A program made the translations under genes and the position numbers. DNA of 63,796 nucleotides, counting the filler, from Rhabdomonas costata (taxonomy: Eukaryota): the NCBI GenBank assembly GCA_019059605.1. It is 19 parts of 19 records of this genome, joined end to end, with 100 filler letters (N's around TTAATTAATTAA, not from the genome) between each part and the next. Parts side by side here need not be neighbours in the genome. Positions count along the whole stretch, not along the records: positions 30,305 to 33,567 come from JAHMHO010001099.1; 18 more parts are not named here. One strand, written 5' to 3'. Position 1 is the first letter of the stretch; every line of letters starts with the position of its first letter. The notes under the pieces are model-generated. The model was given only the letters and a program-made list of their open reading frames with translations, did no database searches and had not been told where the DNA came from. Positions 2,520 to 36,200 of the stretch are shown here, piece by piece.

Positions 2520-3169
2520 CTTGGCGCCGTCCATGCTGAAGCAGGCTGACCTCACCCAGTTGTTCTCCGCATCCAGGCAGGACAGCACCTGGCCTCCGCC
2601 CCAGTCCCACACCCGGGCAGTGGAGTCCGCGGAGCCGGTCACCACTCGGGACCCATCCCGTTCGCAGAAACGCACACTGAGCACCCTGAAGTCGAAAAGC
2701 ACGAGCAGCCCGGGTGATGCAGGAGAATGTGCGCGTTTAGGGCGCTGATGCCGGGGCCTTCTTGCTTAATTCGCTCGGTGGTGTATGCGCATTTCTGATG
2801 TTAAGCAATGGCATGACAAATCAGCAGGTGAAGAAATCACCCATCACCGATCGATCGCCCATTGGGTTACCTTTGCTGAAGTGTGCACGATCCGAATGAG
2901 ATTGCCAGGGTCGTCAAGCCCAGAATTGAAGCTCGCTGAGGGCATGTGTTGGTCCGGGACTTGGAAAATCTTGAACACCTCTTCAAAAAACTGTTCAGTG
3001 GGAGTTTCTGCACCTCCCCCCCCTCCATTCCCCAGAACCCGCACCTGTCGTTGTGTCCTTGAAGAACCGCCAGTGGCTTTCCACCGCCGAGGTCCCAGAC
3101 ACGTGCAGTGCAGTCACACGACGCGGTGGCCCCGACTCCCTCTGAAGGGGAGAAGGCCACAGCACGAAC
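2520..3169 (-). CDS. WD40-repeat protein, internal exons 3169-3045 and 2685-2520
   Basis: VRAVAFSP...ATASCDCTARVWD...LQGHNDR|VLSVRF...VVTGSADSTARVWD...WVRSACFS; the GT-AG intron keeps frame. Confidence 0.9.
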
Positions 3170-3271
3170 CTTTGCGCGACACGCAAAGGAGAGAGTAGAA
3201 ACAAGCCAGAAAAACAAAGCCAAGCGCACTCATGACAAAATGCACAACCAACCGAACCCAGCCCACGTGAC

Positions 3272-3371
3272 NNNNNNNNNNNNNNNNNNNNNNNNNNNNN
3301 NNNNNNNNNNNNNNNTTAATTAATTAANNNNNNNNNNNNNNNNNNNNNNNNNNNNNNNNNNNNNNNNNNNN
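3272..3371. other. Artificial contig linker (N44-TTAATTAATTAA-N44), first of 18; others start at 6647, 10015, 13382, 16747, 20112, 23474, 26838, 30205, 33568, 36929, 40290, 43653, 47011, 50366, 53722, 57078, 60438
   Basis: Identical 100-nt spacer with stops in all six frames every ~3.36 kb; flanking contigs are unrelated and of near-equal, slowly decreasing length. Confidence 0.98.
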
Positions 3372-4210
3372 ATTGACCCGGGCTGGCCAGTGCCCATCGG
3401 AGGGGGGCCTCCCAAATAGATACCTCCGACAGCACGCGCGTCCCTTCCATTGAGATTGCAGCGGAGGTGGAAGCCGAACCTGAAGCTCTCGGTGATCAAA
3501 CAACGAGTGGGCCGAGTAGCTGCGCGCTTCCCCGAGGGACCACCAGCGACTTCAGCCCGTGCTGCCCACCACACAGCCTCTACGAGCCGAAGAGGGGATC
3601 CTGTCACCCCTTTAATTGAGAGTGTGTCATCATCAAGGATCCGGCTTTGGCGGGACCCGAGCTCCTGCGCCACCACTCCTTTACACATTCCTCACCCAAA
3701 ACGTGAGAGAGAGAGAGAGAGAGAGGTGTCGCAAGCGAGGTAGGGGGATGGCAGCCCTTCTTTGAACAGCCCCAGCACAATCGGCCCACGTCTACTTCAA
3801 ACCAGGTCAATGTTGACCTCTGAGGCGGTTCGGACTGCTTTGTAATTAACTGTTTTTTATGAGTCCGTGTGAATCCCCCCTGGATTTTGATTTACCCCGC
3901 TTCATTTCCGCTCTCGCCTTCCTCCAATGGCGTGGTGCGTTTGAAGCTCCAACAGCACCGTTCTCCATTCCGCTGCAGCCAGTGTGTGCATGTCGGGTGT
4001 TTTTTTATAGTAAAATCATTCGTGCGTGATGACTTCGACAACAGCCTCTTGTTGCGTTGTGTCCATTCTTCTGGCTATCTGTTTTTTGTTTTCATCCAGA
4101 GGGGACTCAAGCAAGTCTGAGCATATAGTTCACGTGTATGCATTACAATTATCATCGGAATGTATGTGAGAGGTAGTTGTCAAGACTTATTCGGATGGCC
4201 TGGGCGACAG

Positions 4211-30304: not shown

Positions 30305-30533
30305 ATGTCTCAATGGCGGTGCGCGGGGGCCCGAAAGGCGGCGGGGTGGGCGGCACGACGTTCGCGGCGGGCTGAGCAGTGGACACTGCAGGGATGGTAA
30401 TAACCAGAGGGGCAGGGGTGATGGACTGCTGACTCCTTCCAGTGTAAGTATAAAGATGGAGGCATAGTACCACAACCAATATCAGCACAGCAAAAGGAAA
30501 AACTCGGCGCGACAGAGCGTCCCAGTCAGACAT
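30305..30533 (-). CDS. N-terminus of a probable type II membrane protein (signal anchor plus Pro/Thr-rich stem), truncated by contig end
   Basis: MSDWDALSRR-VFPFAVLILVVVLCLHLY-...PAPLVITIPAVSTAQPAANVVPPTPPP; pyrimidine tract and AG directly before the ATG. Confidence 0.55.
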
Positions 30534-30689
30534 CTTGGGTTTCGTCCGAGGAAAGGGGGCTGAGCCTCTCCGCAGCCCAACAAAGCGAATACAAAGCAGA
30601 AAAGAAAGAAAAGACGCCCCTGTGGTACACGCAGGCCAATCAGGAGTTGTAGCGTGATGGGAAGGAGGGGTCCCATCTATTCAACTAGC

Positions 30690-31125
30690 CAGTTTCTTCG
30701 AACCATTCTTACACAGACACATTTCCGATGCCGCCTGCAAGTCTAGAAGAGGGTTAGTTTGGTTCCTGCCTTCTTAATGACATGCCAGGACGTATAGGCT
30801 AACCGAATGACGTCAGAAATTTGGGAAACTGAAAATGTTAGGGACCTTCTTAAAACTGATGTGGGGCTGGAAGACATATCTCTTCAAAATTGCTACCTTG
30901 CACAAATGTCCAGTGGCACCGGTGACGCCTCATGAGTTGTCGAAAAGTGCCACGTGCCTCCCAATCACCTAACTCGTCTACTTCCAACCAACCATTCTTA
31001 TCCACAAAATGCTTCCGCCTGCAAGTCGGGAAGGGTGCATACTCTGCCTCCTGCCTCGTGGATGTCATGCCTGGACGTATCCAGCACCCGAATCAATTCA
31101 CATTTCGGGGATGGAAATGAAAAAT
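30690..31125. repeat. Diverged direct duplication of ~135 bp (30690-30835 and 30985-31125) in an intergenic region
   Basis: Shared blocks aaccattctta, ccgcctgcaagtc, cctgcct, catgccNggacgtat and ccgaat at ~290-bp spacing. Confidence 0.75.
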
Positions 31126-31521
31126 AAGAACGAAAGTGGCTCATGTAAAATCCAAATCTCGTCACTCCAAACATGGGTGTTTCCTTTAAAACTGACAGAA
31201 AAACAAGTGTCCAAAGCAATCTTCATTACCATCAAAGGGAGTTCGGCGAAGACCGGCATCCCTTCCGATGCACAGCCGTCATTCCCATCCAAGAAATCAG
31301 AGAAAAGTTTCATCAAAGCTGTCATTAAGAAGCGGGTATTTTCCCCGAACTCCCCTCTTCCAACTTCCCGCGATGCCTTTGCAAACGTCCCATACCTGGG
31401 AGGCGAAGACCAAAAGAAAGGGATAGGGGGGGGGAGTGTTGCAGCAGAAAGTCGAGTCGCTCGTGAAGAACTTGGAAAGGCACCTCCCTCATTCCTGCGG
31501 GGACTCACCCGGAGGGCCTTC

Positions 31522-33272
31522 TTAGTTCTTCTTAGCACGCTTGGGCGGCGAGGAGGACGCGATCTTCTCCACCTTGTCCACACTCTCACGGAACTCGATC
31601 CCCATCTGGGCCAGCTCCTGCAGGATCGGCTTGTACAGCTCGGGAATGACAGGGGTCTGGATCCCTGTTATTTGGCATGCGTGGTACTAGCGAAAATATG
31701 AAGGGCTACTATGTTGCTGGCCTGTTCGGTACGACGGACGAATGCTCCTGTTACATTGGCATTTGGCATGTGTGTTGCCTGATGGAGGGACCTGCCAAAA
31801 CGACCTTTGCCTCCCCCCCCCCCATCTCGAAGGCAGGTTCCGTTTCTAAGGGGACCAAAAACACCGTTCGCTTCAGTTCCATCTACCGACCACCGACGCT
31901 GAAGGCAGTAGCAGTGAGTGCGCCTGAGCCTGTACAACTGTTTGGCTGGCTCCACTACGAGCTACTCAGAATGTTTCGCTACATGTCACTGCGGACAGGT
32001 CAGCGCTGGCCTCTCCTCCATTGATGTCACACAGCCGACACAGCCGGACAGCAGTGGTGGGTCTGAGGAGGAGCGTGGCAAACAACAGAGCAATCTCTGC
32101 TGCACAAAATGACCTAAGAACGACACATCTGTTGCCGGACGAGGCGTACCACCCACGCACAAACAACTGCGCACCTGGGGTGGTGAACTTCCCGCTCAGC
32201 ACCAGGTTGCATGCGATGGCCACGGGGATGGAGACCGTGGTGCTCATGCTGGTGGCACCGTTGGGCTTCCCGATGTCCACCATGGTGGAGCTCAAGTACT
32301 CGCGGCGGTCGGGGTACTCCACCACGAACTCGTGCTTCATCAGGAGCATGTCCTGTGGACAAGGGACCATTCCCAGTTGCCTCGCTCTTTCACAGGGACT
32401 ACAAGGCCACAAGGGGCTTTTGTCCCTTTCGTCTGTGTGCGTCAGGCAGGTTGACGCCAGTGCTTCTTCAGTTTTTCACAGCACTGTACCGGGATAGCTG
32501 AAGTTCTTCGTCGCTTTTGTACTTCTGGTGGATTTGGAAGCGGTTGGCAGTCATCAGCGTTCACAAAGTGGGAAACGAAGTGATCATATTGATGTGTGCA
32601 TAGGTGCACATGCTTTAATTCATTGAGCGCATCGTTGAGCGCATAGCGCGCCAGCTGATGTCTTGATCCTCTGGCTATCCCAAACGTTGGGCGCAGCGCA
32701 TATGTGATCGTGATGTACAAAGAAGTGCGACGCACATACTCGCGAAAAGCCCGTGCGCGTTCCCCCATGACCCCGAGCCCATGGTGGTCATGCTGTGCGT
32801 TTGCGTAGTTCCAAAGGGGAAAGAAGGAAAGAAACCTTCTCGCCAGGGGCATACTGCATCCGGGGCAGCATTGCCTGGGCGACCATGTCCAGGCGGGTGT
32901 TCACAGAGCTGGGGACGCGGTCTGAGCTGAACAGCCCGAGCCATTCCATATCTGCCGCGGGGGAGGAATGTCGGCGGTAGGGGTGTGGGTGGTTAGGCGG
33001 GAACAAAACGGAGGGGTTTTAAACAGACCCGCGGTCCCCCACAAGCTCTTTCACGGCTGTTCAGTGAGAAAAGCACAGTAGCAGAATTTTCGAGCGCACC
33101 CAAGACAGGGCTGCGCCCAGCTGGAACACACTGACAGCTTGACAGCTGCTGAAACCAAGTCGGTTGGTAACACAAGAATGCTCACCCAGAAGTCCGGAAC
33201 TGCAAGCACCCAGGGCGAACCTGTGATCGGCTTATCCGTAAGAGCCAGGCCCAGCTTCTTGGCCACCGCTTC
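31522..33272 (-). CDS. Saccharopine dehydrogenase (glutamate-forming, Lys9/AASS-SDH type), C-terminal exons 33272-33221, 32951-32836, 32352-32175, 31664-31522
   Basis: MEWLGLFS...LDMVAQAMLPRMQYAPGEK|DMLLMKHEFVVEY...SMSTTVSIPVAIACNLVLSG...G|IQTPVIPELYKPILQELAQMGIEF. Confidence 0.94.
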
Positions 33273-36200
33273 CTGAGAATGCCAGCACCCACCATAAGAT
33301 GGATCGAGCCCAAAGCAAAGCATTCGCCAGCTGAGCTGAAACGAACAACGGTGCCCGGCGACCAGGGAAGAACCCCGTCCAAACCTTTCGGTCCTTGCCC
33401 ATGAAAAGTCGGTTGCGGTAATTAGGAAATCACGATGATCACTGACTTTCTCTCGCCCTCAAGCTCTCAACCGAAGGTGGGTCAGGCCCACACGCCATCT
33501 CCCATGATAGGGTACGGTACTGTAGATCGAGACCTGCAAATGGTCTATAGCCGCTTTCCACAACACCNNNNNNNNNNNNNNNNNNNNNNNNNNNNNNNNN
33601 NNNNNNNNNNNTTAATTAATTAANNNNNNNNNNNNNNNNNNNNNNNNNNNNNNNNNNNNNNNNNNNNGGTTTTTTGTAATCTTCGCAGAGCTGCATCGCA
33701 CGGGGGGGTCGCGCGGTTCAGCGGCGCAAGCAAATGCGGGGATGTTTGTTTGCTACAGAGACAGGGAGACAGGGAGTGGCCCAATCTGGCCACTCTCTTT
33801 CGTTCTCAAGCTGATCGATATCGGCAGTACAGGCAGTACAGTAACACTCCCAAAAGGCTAAATGAGCGTAATCTAGAGGTGAGCACACCATCAAGTAGAG
33901 GTGAGCACCACATCAATTGTTGGACGCTTCAAAACGGCACTGCTGATGCCACCCCGCAACATTTTCCCGTATTGTCTGAGGGATTGTTGGCGTTACATCA
34001 CCCTTTTCGAGCTTTGGGAAACTTGCTTTTCGATGTAAGGAAGAAAGATTGAAAAGATGGACCCACAAGTTCAGTGTGCTTGAGCTCAAGATGAGTTCTT
34101 CGGGGGGCAGAAAGGGATCCTCCCCATGGCAACACGTTCAGCCGCTTTCGTCCTCCTTCCGCTTCCGCGCTATAGCCGAGCTTTATGCCCGTATCGCTGT
34201 ATCGCTCGAGAGCAAAGGTACCTGCAATATGTGTGACGCCTATATTATGTGTTTGTGTTCAGCTTGGCAGAAACAGTACCATCACCAAAACTTAAACACG
34301 CTCACATCTGGCTGCACGCGCAGAAAGCTATGGGTGCAGTGTATGTGCAGGTCATAACAGCAGCAACCGGTAGAAAGCACAGGAGGACAATAACAATAGC
34401 GCGGACCTGTCGCCTTTGGTAACGAGGGCCTTGATTCTTTGCACATCCTCAAACTTCAGCTTGTCGAGACCCGAGATCTGCGCACCAGCGGTCACAAAAG
34501 CTTTCGAGAGCACACACACATACACACACTGGGACTACAGCCGAAGCACAGGAAACCGTTGTGCGCTGGTCCTTGCACCCCAGGCCAGTCACTTCCATTT
34601 TTGGCGGCTCATGTATGTTGTACAAAGAGAGCACAACTAAAATGTCCCCCAACCACACCAGTCGGAGCACGCAGAAAGACGACAAACCTGCGAAAGTGAC
34701 TTCAGCTTTCCCGCGTTCTTCACCATCCAAATGTCCCCAAAAAACTCAAATTTATGCCTGAAGACACCAACAGATCAACCCAAACGCAAGCGCGCGGTTG
34801 ACAAATGTCTGGTGGCAGCGAAGAGCGAATGATGGAGGAGGTGGAATGTAAGGCAAAACCTGGCTGAAGTACTCACTACAAACTAGAGCACTCATTTGTG
34901 CGCAGGAACAGCTCACGTTTTCAGCTCGTGAGAGAAAGGGCCAGCCCATAGCGGCCTAACAGACCAACACCTCAGGAACAATGTTCATCGCTGCGGAGAT
35001 CGAAACGCTGGTGGTGTGTGCGCGCAGGGCACGGCACGACAGAGGGTCGGGACAGTGGACAGCAGAGTATGGCAGCATACCATTGAGGGTACATCCCGTC
35101 AAACTTCGGGCTCTGCATCATCACCCCGATCCTGAGGGAGCCCTCGGGGATCAGCTGCTTGGAGGAATTACAGGTCGACCTTTACAACCACAGGACACCA
35201 CAGGACGCGGGTGCAATTGCGTTCAAAACGGGGGTCATGTTTCTGCCTTTGATCTACGGCTAATAGGGGCCTCCAAAAGAAGCTGGTCAAGCAGGTATCG
35301 CCGTGGATCACAGGGTCACAGTGTTGAAGCAGAAAACACACAACTTCTCTAAGCAAAAGTAAAAGCAATAGTGAGTTTGGTCTTTCCGGTTTCTTGGACA
35401 TTCAATTGGTCATGGCCAGCATCCATACCCCCTCCCCCCCGCAAACAGCCGTACAGAGGTCCTCCAAATAATCTCACTTGCGATGGAACAAGGGCTGCTG
35501 CCCGTAAAACCACCAAATGCGGCAGGACGTGGGCGGGGAGCGGAGGAAACAGTCAATCGATTCAGGAAAAACTGCTTCAAAGACAGCAAAAAGGGGACCT
35601 GCTGGAGAGTGCATAGTCCACCTTGAACTGTTGCACCTCTTCCGTGACGTCGTTATCCGCCATTCAACGCAAAAGGCTTCTCAGTTGCAAAAATGTGTGG
35701 GAGAGGAAAATCCCTCGAGCGATGCTGTGCAGACAGCGGCACCAAAAATGCTGGACGCCTACGTGCAGAACACATTCTCGATAGTGCTTCGCAGCTGCAG
35801 CAGCTGCCATAGATTCGCATTTAATAGTGCTTAGAAAGCTCCATTCAGCGCTCTTTTGAAACCTACTTGTACAACGAACAGGCCATGTGTTCAAATATGC
35901 TTGATTCGCAAACCTGCAACTTGTGTGATCCACTAGCGTGACACATATGGAGCCGGACTCCCCCAAAGTGCCAGTCAACTTAACCAGAACTGCCATATCT
36001 ATTGAAGACAATCGCCGAGATGAGCTCTATGAACACACCTTTCGAAGACTCACGCTTGCCACGACTTTGATGGCAAATAATCATGGACCATTGCAAATTT
36101 GAATATAGGCTTAACAACTCTTTCCGCCCTTCCTTCTGATTGAATGAGGGGCGGGAGCATGACAAGACCACGCGACACGAAGCAACGTGCGTGCACGTTT

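Follow-up and report, generated by a model that had tools for sequence, protein, structure and literature searches.

The intron and its host gene

The window, the whole stretch of DNA analysed here, comprises 63,796 nucleotides, in which short contigs of the Rhabdomonas costata assembly GCA_019059605.1 are strung together with N linkers between them. One of its contigs (JAHMHO010001099.1, positions 30,305 to 33,567) carries part of a saccharopine dehydrogenase gene on the minus strand, and the last intron of this gene is a 510-nt GT-AG intron in phase 1 at 31665..32174. It is preceded by an exon at 32175..32352, which encodes residues 355–413, and followed by the last exon, whose coding part at 31522..31664 encodes residues 414–460 and the stop codon. 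The intron splits the codon of Gly414, a residue that is invariant in 24 of 24 aligned proteins. In the following, intron positions are counted from the first base (+1) and from the last base (−1).

The boundaries are supported by contigs of two sequencing runs from two studies, X4 and X5, and by exon mapping of the protein P0001 (eukprot:RCo010678), which is 100% identical to the product encoded by the exons. One contig from each run lacks stretches of 510, 483, and 269 nt of the genomic contig, all three of which are GT-AG on the minus strand. The 510-nt omission is exact (CT..AC on the plus strand) in both the X4 contig (depth 31), which runs on to 31357, and the X5 contig (depth 4.6). This exact loss of three introns marks the X4 and X5 contigs as transcripts, though they are not on record as RNA. 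The junction of the 510-nt intron is ambiguous by four letters, and its CAGG repeat allows five equivalent registers, only one of which is GT-AG. Both the coordinates and the end sequences given for the intron in the earlier note proved correct. Boundaries moved by +2 to +4, which would place a CAG at +4, were ruled out by the transcript contigs.

Several minor features surround the gene. Its first intron, 467 nt long, lies on the minus strand of L008 (G000:C2404, where G000 denotes the assembly). Provided that P0001 is correct, its borders are GT...AT (or TC...TG), the acceptor lacks AG, and the ends form no stem (−8.7 kcal/mol); a rare noncanonical acceptor, allelic variation, or a mistake in the assembly could each explain this. 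Small insertions relative to the window occur in the 3′ untranslated region of X4 and X3 at 31425 and 31482-31483, and X1 and X3 show several base differences; together, these suggest heterozygosity or assembly errors. The neighbouring contig contains a tandem pair of a 21-nt unit at 33874-33916, with copies 90% alike. In an unrooted tree of 34 of 121 proteins, P0001 groups with P0003 among transcript-like entries, separately from 14 archaeal-type entries, and the tree is silent on the age of the intron. Most of the named prokaryotic relatives among the best 120 matches of P0001 belong to the Thorarchaeota (Asgard archaea), with ~50% identity; in the same tree, the named prokaryotic relatives are set apart on one side of a branch with full support.

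For comparison, we compiled an intron set from 723,210 bases in 139 contigs, which yielded 181 predicted GT/GC-AG introns, 111 of them with high confidence. These introns are predicted rather than transcript-mapped. The predictor located the focal intron unaided and recovered two of the three transcript-confirmed introns of its contig; its placement of one protein-derived donor in L008 missed by 18 nt, and errors of this kind could dilute a weak signal.

A long helix joins the intron ends

The two ends of the intron are complementary. The 5′ arm (+8..+29; 32146..32167, minus strand), with pair probabilities of at least 0.99 with and without exon flanks, is predicted to pair with an A/C-rich 3′ arm (−23..−3; 31667..31687, minus strand), which leaves 7 nt free at the intron's 5′ end and 2 nt at its 3′ end. 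The resulting stem has 20 base pairs, 18 Watson–Crick and 2 G-U, interrupted by a bulge at +16 and a G.G mismatch at +22/−16, and it continues beyond an A.A mismatch to one more pair, C+6:G−1. The earlier note had described a stem of ~21 bp with two G-U pairs, one bulge, and one mismatch; these irregularities stood, but the length in the window is 20 bp, and 21 bp are reached only with a base seen in the DNA run X1. The X1 contig (depth 7.16) reads C>A at 32153, which on the minus strand replaces the window's G at intron position +22 with U, closes the mismatch as a U.G pair, and shifts the duplex energy from −31.5 to −33.2 kcal/mol. The X1 base is either an allele or an assembly error. With it, all three inner substitutions are G-U compatible, for which the chance of three out of three is ~1 in 8.

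Folding of the 510-nt intron, which had been proposed as a check, favours end-to-end pairing, with each pair of the stem above 0.99. The end-to-end helix is real and dominates the predicted fold, in agreement with the earlier proposal that the paired ends bring the splice sites together. The focal intron contains 20 pairs with a probability above 0.9, the most among 128 folded introns, compared with at most 10 in the other 127. The duplex is more stable in the sense than in the antisense orientation (−31.5 vs −20.2 kcal/mol). Taken over its full length, the intron shows no unusual stability (z −0.25; equalled by 38 of 100 shuffles).

Parts of the arms recur within the intron. A second copy of the core of the 3′ arm, identical at 13 of 14 positions, lies at +401..+414 (31761..31774, minus strand); of 139 other introns, 1 matches its own body equally well when scored strictly and 6 do so when scored leniently. 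From the 5′ arm, the first 8 bases are found again at +89 (window 32079-32086), and a comparable repeat is present in 5 of 144 other introns. A long imperfect inverted repeat behind the arms was considered and rejected, with 60 of 144 other introns equally good.

Splice signals and an upstream TAG

The donor GTGCGCA (+1..+7; 32168..32174, minus strand) is near the local consensus, a form that should be able to pair with U1. Its first four bases are mostly unpaired, and C+6 can pair with G−1. GTG[CT]G opens 21 of the 111 high-confidence introns, and the donor score equals or exceeds that of 91 of the 111; in Euglena gracilis the donor consensus is given as GTGTG in the available part of PMC11170887. 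The acceptor is the second weakest of the 111 and the most A-rich, with six A in −15..−4, a value reached by the focal intron only. It had been described as A/C-rich and devoid of a pyrimidine tract. The first part of this description holds, but a run of 13 pyrimidines out of 16 lies at −41..−26, just upstream of the 3′ arm (as rich there in 13 of 110 other introns), and the 8 pyrimidines out of 16 in −20..−5 are matched by equally few in 24 of the 110.

The pyrimidine run leads into a TAG at −25..−23 (31687..31705 for both, minus strand), an out-of-frame candidate acceptor 22 nt upstream of the real site, whose G closes the stem. The predicted unpaired probability is 0.79–0.98 across −40..−28 and 0.01 at G−23. 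Since stems occlude cryptic 3′ splice sites in yeast, according to the accessible part of PMC12350175, this arrangement suggests by analogy that the stem may mask the nearer acceptor. There may, however, be nothing to mask, because the TAG scores poorly, as does the real site (−2.4 and −2.9, respectively), and few of the 110 other introns (7) have T at −3. Stronger AGs upstream of the acceptor occur in 13 of the 110, and 32 have an upstream AG within 22 nt.

Terminal stems are rare among predicted GT-AG introns of this genome

With 30-nt ends, the pairing of the focal intron was equalled by 4 of 5000 shuffles and by 0 of 4115 random 510-nt segments of the window, and 9 of 7203 mismatched intron ends were as good by energy. 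Its Watson–Crick score of 13 places it at the top of the set as the only one of 181 introns to reach this value, which 6 of 32,580 mismatched end pairs also reach, so that 0.03 such stems are expected among 181 introns and one is seen. The signal is weaker with 40-nt ends, where 41 of 5000 shuffles and 43 of 4130 random segments are as good and 22 of 32,580 mismatched pairs match the Watson–Crick score; by energy, 3 of 181 introns compare with 2.2 expected, which is not exceptional. General end pairing of GT-AG introns was not found when own and mismatched ends were compared across the 181 introns (Mann–Whitney p 0.65 and 0.45), nor did 101 introns show an excess at any of 24 combinations of offsets (smallest p among 48 tests, 0.046). 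End-paired stems are rare among the GT-AG introns of this organism. A rate of 1.8e-4 per intron means that roughly one such stem is expected by chance in several thousand introns, and inverted repeats scoring at least 13 are common anywhere in the 723 kb (664 vs 507 in a Markov control).

The next strongest end-paired predicted GT-AG introns lie in L064 (plus strand, 3542-3834), L088 (minus strand, 3257-3697), and L022 (minus strand, 2772-3176). Their coordinates are counted on the given strand. They have 5, 10, and 10 pairs above 0.9, respectively, are supported by prediction only, and fall within chance expectation. A repeat scan that needed no boundaries was run on 244 gaps but failed to pick up the focal intron, and was hence set aside.

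One copy in the searched assembly

The ends of the intron had been likened to an imperfect terminal inverted repeat, and a MITE- or introner-like insertion had been proposed as its possible source, with selection on structure as the other option. Searching the assembly with the whole intron and with three of its parts, termini and body alike, gave self-matches only, and each arm is unique in the assembly at up to three mismatches; the copy count is a lower bound, as the assembly is fragmented and the DNA search skips common words. The DNA depth of X1 is even across the intron (7.16). A dispersed family made of this intron is not supported by these results, nor by its junction repeat: the direct repeat CAGG at the 5′ junction (32174..32177, minus strand) and the 3′ junction (31664..31667, minus strand) is of a common kind, with junction repeats of at least 4 nt in 25 of 111 introns, 10 of which or of the remainder carry CAG|G at either end, and it is not flush with the 5′ arm, which begins 6–7 nt inside the repeat. 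No target-site duplication adjoins the stem: the exact duplication measures one base around +6..−1 or +8..−3, and CAGG appears only around +2..−4.

A 13-mer across the donor occurs at one other place in the assembly (0 in the control), where the likeness, judged by eye, ends a few bases later. Rfam returned 0 matches at E ≤1 for the intron, and the scanned metagenome contigs contained no related locus. Elsewhere in the assembly, other strong inverted-repeat pairs lie in L033 (2467-3195), L032 (2347-2703), L019 (429-1576), L113 (4290-4669), L042 (1-422), and L078 (3021-4512). These six score 21–56 against a control maximum of 19, none of them lies at a predicted intron end, and they are probably further MITE families.

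Likeness of the 3′ arm to a Merlin-type transposon

The assembly has three further occurrences of a 14-mer from the 3′-arm core (1 in the control). One of them, in L133, is the end of a dispersed element with GG termini, which shows 15 matches. The family to which it belongs has an inverted repeat of at least 21 bp (26 matches vs 0 in the control), a GG terminus, and non-autonomous copies of 220–275 bp. Five complete elements were found, three of which have exact 8-bp AT-rich target duplications, and L140 contains a fragment of a broken IS1595-type transposase (PF12762, E 0.0061, below the curated cut-off, 1 of 4 fragments). We call these elements Merlin because their features agree with those that the available part of PMC8101967 gives for this superfamily, namely GG termini and an 8- or 9-bp target duplication, with two families in E. 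gracilis. Family loci are L160, L161, L166, L158, L090, L133, L140, L143, L146, L148-L157, and L162-L169.

Positions −20..−10 of the 3′ arm resemble the 11 outermost bases of the inverted repeat of Merlin. When the arm was scored by weight matrix as a repeat tip plus flank, with the discovery locus L133 left out, 6 of 1,424,326 sites were as good (0 of 1,415,140 with an earlier, smaller matrix), a test that is partly circular, the family having been reached through the arm's own 14-mer. On the repeat alone 66 sites were as good, a number that rose to 128 when two bases were added. At +22, X1 carries the base that the repeat predicts (A at −7 in 27 of 29 ends). In addition, a 12-nt block at +334..+345 (31830..31841, minus strand) is identical to a stretch just inside the right end of the longer Merlin subfamily; 55 nt separate it from the internal arm copy downstream, and block and copy follow each other as in the element. 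Of 19,819 random 120-nt windows, 10 score as well for the block, and for block and arm copy chained together 1 of 2,602.

The likeness stops after 11 of the ~21 repeat bases. A full inverted repeat with a GG terminus at both ends was not found: the outer 11 bases are present at the 3′ arm only, and the 5′ arm needs a gap. Neither the right-end nor the whole-element nhmmer profile matched within the intron, and alignments of whole elements do not favour the focal intron, with 10 to 118 of 118 other introns equally good. Around +15..−10, where an 8-bp target duplication was sought, only two of eight bases are alike as direct repeats, and the flanks are inverted rather than direct. A search for a subfamily with the arm's inner bases found none (4 matches vs 14 in the control). 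Compared with the elements of PMC8101967, as far as described in its available part, the 3′ arm and its internal copy thus resemble the last 10–11 bases of the local repeat with AT-rich flank, but the inner half of the repeat, the element body, and the target duplication were not found in the intron.

Comparison with nonconventional introns

Nonconventional introns of Euglena follow the code 5′-N3CDG-/-CH'GN5-6|R (PMC12501133, in the part available). In the focal intron, none of the five transcript-compatible registers fits N3-CDG ... CH'G-N5-6|R; pairing just inside motifs of the nonconventional type is present, but in another register. For R. costata itself, Table S6 of PMC8219788 lists seven nonconventional candidates, all with a GC start and two pyrimidines before the final G. 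In the three of these seven that we counted by eye, the stem starts at +10 or +11 and at −9 to −14, compared with +8/−3 in the focal intron, which has neither the GC start nor the YY|G tail. Scans with both signatures gave 382 Euglena-type and 78 R. costata-type matches, which are unvalidated candidates only.

As described in the accessible parts of PMC12501133 and PMC8219788, these introns share with the focal intron a long imperfect helix joining the ends, a CAG near the 5′ end, and a short junction repeat. They differ in that the focal intron has GT-AG borders, its CAG at +6 rather than +4, no CTG, and no GC start, and in the number of unpaired 3′ bases, which is 2 in the focal intron vs 5–6 in Euglena and ~8–13, rich in pyrimidines, in R. 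costata.

Possible origins of the intron and its stem

Given a donor near consensus and the lack of a register that fits the nonconventional rules, the sequence leads us to believe that the spliceosome very probably cuts this intron. We favour, at roughly even confidence, a spliceosomal (U2-type) GT-AG intron of the conventional/intermediate type with an isolated, single-copy terminal stem. The main competitor is chance, in which an ordinary spliceosomal intron has ends that are complementary by accident, and the neutral stem is simply the best of many introns. This is somewhat unlikely in our view. It accounts well for the lack of any general excess of end pairing, the abundance of inverted repeats of this strength, and the report, in the available part of PMC4770533, that a conserved intron of Euglena agilis has such a structure in only some strains. 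It fits less well with the small number of stems expected among the 181 introns, the internal second copy of the arm, a repeat that is flush to the last intron base, and an X1 variant that improves the pairing. Descent from an introner or MITE family with recent activity, through insertion into the exon and duplication of CAGG, would explain the inverted ends and the 4-nt direct repeat at the junctions, but is highly improbable in light of the single copy in all searches of a fragmented assembly, the even X1 depth, the offset of the 5′ arm from the repeat, and the presence of CAG|G at both junctions of other introns.

The arms could be the decayed tips of a Merlin (IS1595-like) transposon whose AT-rich target flank supplied the acceptor; the intron would be spliced by the spliceosome, with a 3′ end that the element had shaped. 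We consider this unlikely: the presence of the family, the score of the 3′ arm, the ordered 12-nt block, and the agreement of the X1 base speak for it, against which stand the partly circular discovery, the short likeness, the negative profiles and whole-element alignments, the missing target duplication and inner bases, and the fact that only ~15 nt would be left over as pre-existing intron. A decayed transposon origin keeps some ground from the resemblance of the 3′ arm to a Merlin tip and loses some to the partly circular test and the negative profile searches. That Merlin-derived sequence lies somewhere in the 3′ part of the intron is a fair deal more plausible, if still short of probable. 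A more specific version, in which stem and acceptor are relics of Merlin ends with AT-rich flank, copied three times (twice direct, once inverted), and the stem selects the 3′ splice site by hiding the nearer one, is slightly less credible than the tip origin itself. Finally, the intron might be a nonconventional, stem-defined intron that merely looks GT-AG, or a converted one. Here, CAG at +6..+8 (as in 3 of 111 predicted introns) faces CAG at −3..−1, where Euglena nonconventional introns have CTG, one substitution would make the CAG/CTG closure, the acceptor is A-rich, and conversion has been proposed in PMC3935182 and PMC4770533, with tubA intron 5 of E. gracilis as a precedent in the parts available. 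This reading is quite improbable, considering that no register fits, that the R. costata candidates differ in their start and stem geometry, and that conversion would require a further loss of 3 nt.

Under the favoured reading of a spliceosomal intron with an isolated stem, the arms would most likely stem from a piece, possibly a transposon tip, that was copied locally in inverted orientation and has decayed since; local duplication is suggested by the internal copy of the 3′ arm. The stem would hold the intron ends 7 and 2 nt apart and leave the pyrimidine run single-stranded just upstream of the 3′ arm. By tying up the G of the out-of-frame TAG 22 nt upstream, it would cause the distal CAG to be used despite its A-rich context. 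Because the stem covers −3 and starts at +8, it would have to melt before catalysis. On this model it is conceivable, though on balance doubtful, that the stem helps early splice-site recognition. By analogy with yeast, it could also hinder splicing, since it is closer to the donor than the 42–85 nt linkers of yeast zipper stems allow (PMC12350175, available part).

Relation to known end-paired introns

Conventional/intermediate introns of euglenids are defined by GT-AG borders and a stable structure joining the ends (PMC3935182). In PMC4770533 they are regarded as spliceosomal, with a structure probably unrelated to that of nonconventional introns, and end-paired noncanonical introns are described from diplonemids in PMC12621601 (each in the part available). 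With GT-AG in one possible register and a predicted stable end-joining structure, the focal intron fits this already described class as one more member, a placement that the earlier note had not made. Its contribution is a single clean case, confirmed by transcripts, from a heterotrophic euglenid, and it would matter more if its arms were Merlin relics or if the stem set the acceptor. The case bears on two questions that the available parts of PMC3935182, PMC4770533, and PMC11282704 leave open, the transposon origin of euglenid end-paired introns and the standing of intermediate introns as real transitional forms, and the intron could readily serve as a test case in the knock-in assay described in PMC12501133.

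A MITE origin of euglenid introns has already been proposed in print (PMC3935182, available part). Merlin relics, if true, would tie an end-paired intron of a euglenid directly to a transposon family with a name, a connection that this hypothesis has so far been missing; none showed among the records listed by our literature search, and the word "intron" has 0 occurrences in the available part of PMC8101967. Introner elements of Micromonas and others resemble the focal intron in their inverted ends and a short duplicated junction with AG (PMC11282704, available part), but the focal intron is single-copy and its inverted repeat is not adjacent to the duplication on the 5′ side.

The closest counterparts are tubA intron 4 of Phacus limnophila, tubB intron 1 of Euglena agilis, and tubA intron 5 and gapC intron 1 of E. 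gracilis (PMC3935182; PMC4770533). As far as the available parts of these papers describe them, they share a junction that can slide over several registers, one of them with GT/C-AG borders, a stable end-joining structure, and a poor fit to the nonconventional model, and tubA intron 5 also resembles the focal intron in its lack of a typical pyrimidine tract. The focal intron differs in its host, a primary osmotroph, and in a helix that begins at +8 and reaches −3; tubA intron 5 has an alternative register that fits the nonconventional model, and the focal intron has none. Zipper and downstream stems of yeast, as presented in the accessible part of PMC12350175, likewise shorten distances within the intron and may hide a cryptic 3′ splice site, but in the focal intron one helix joins the 5′ end directly to the 3′ splice-site region, with linkers of 7 and 2 nt.
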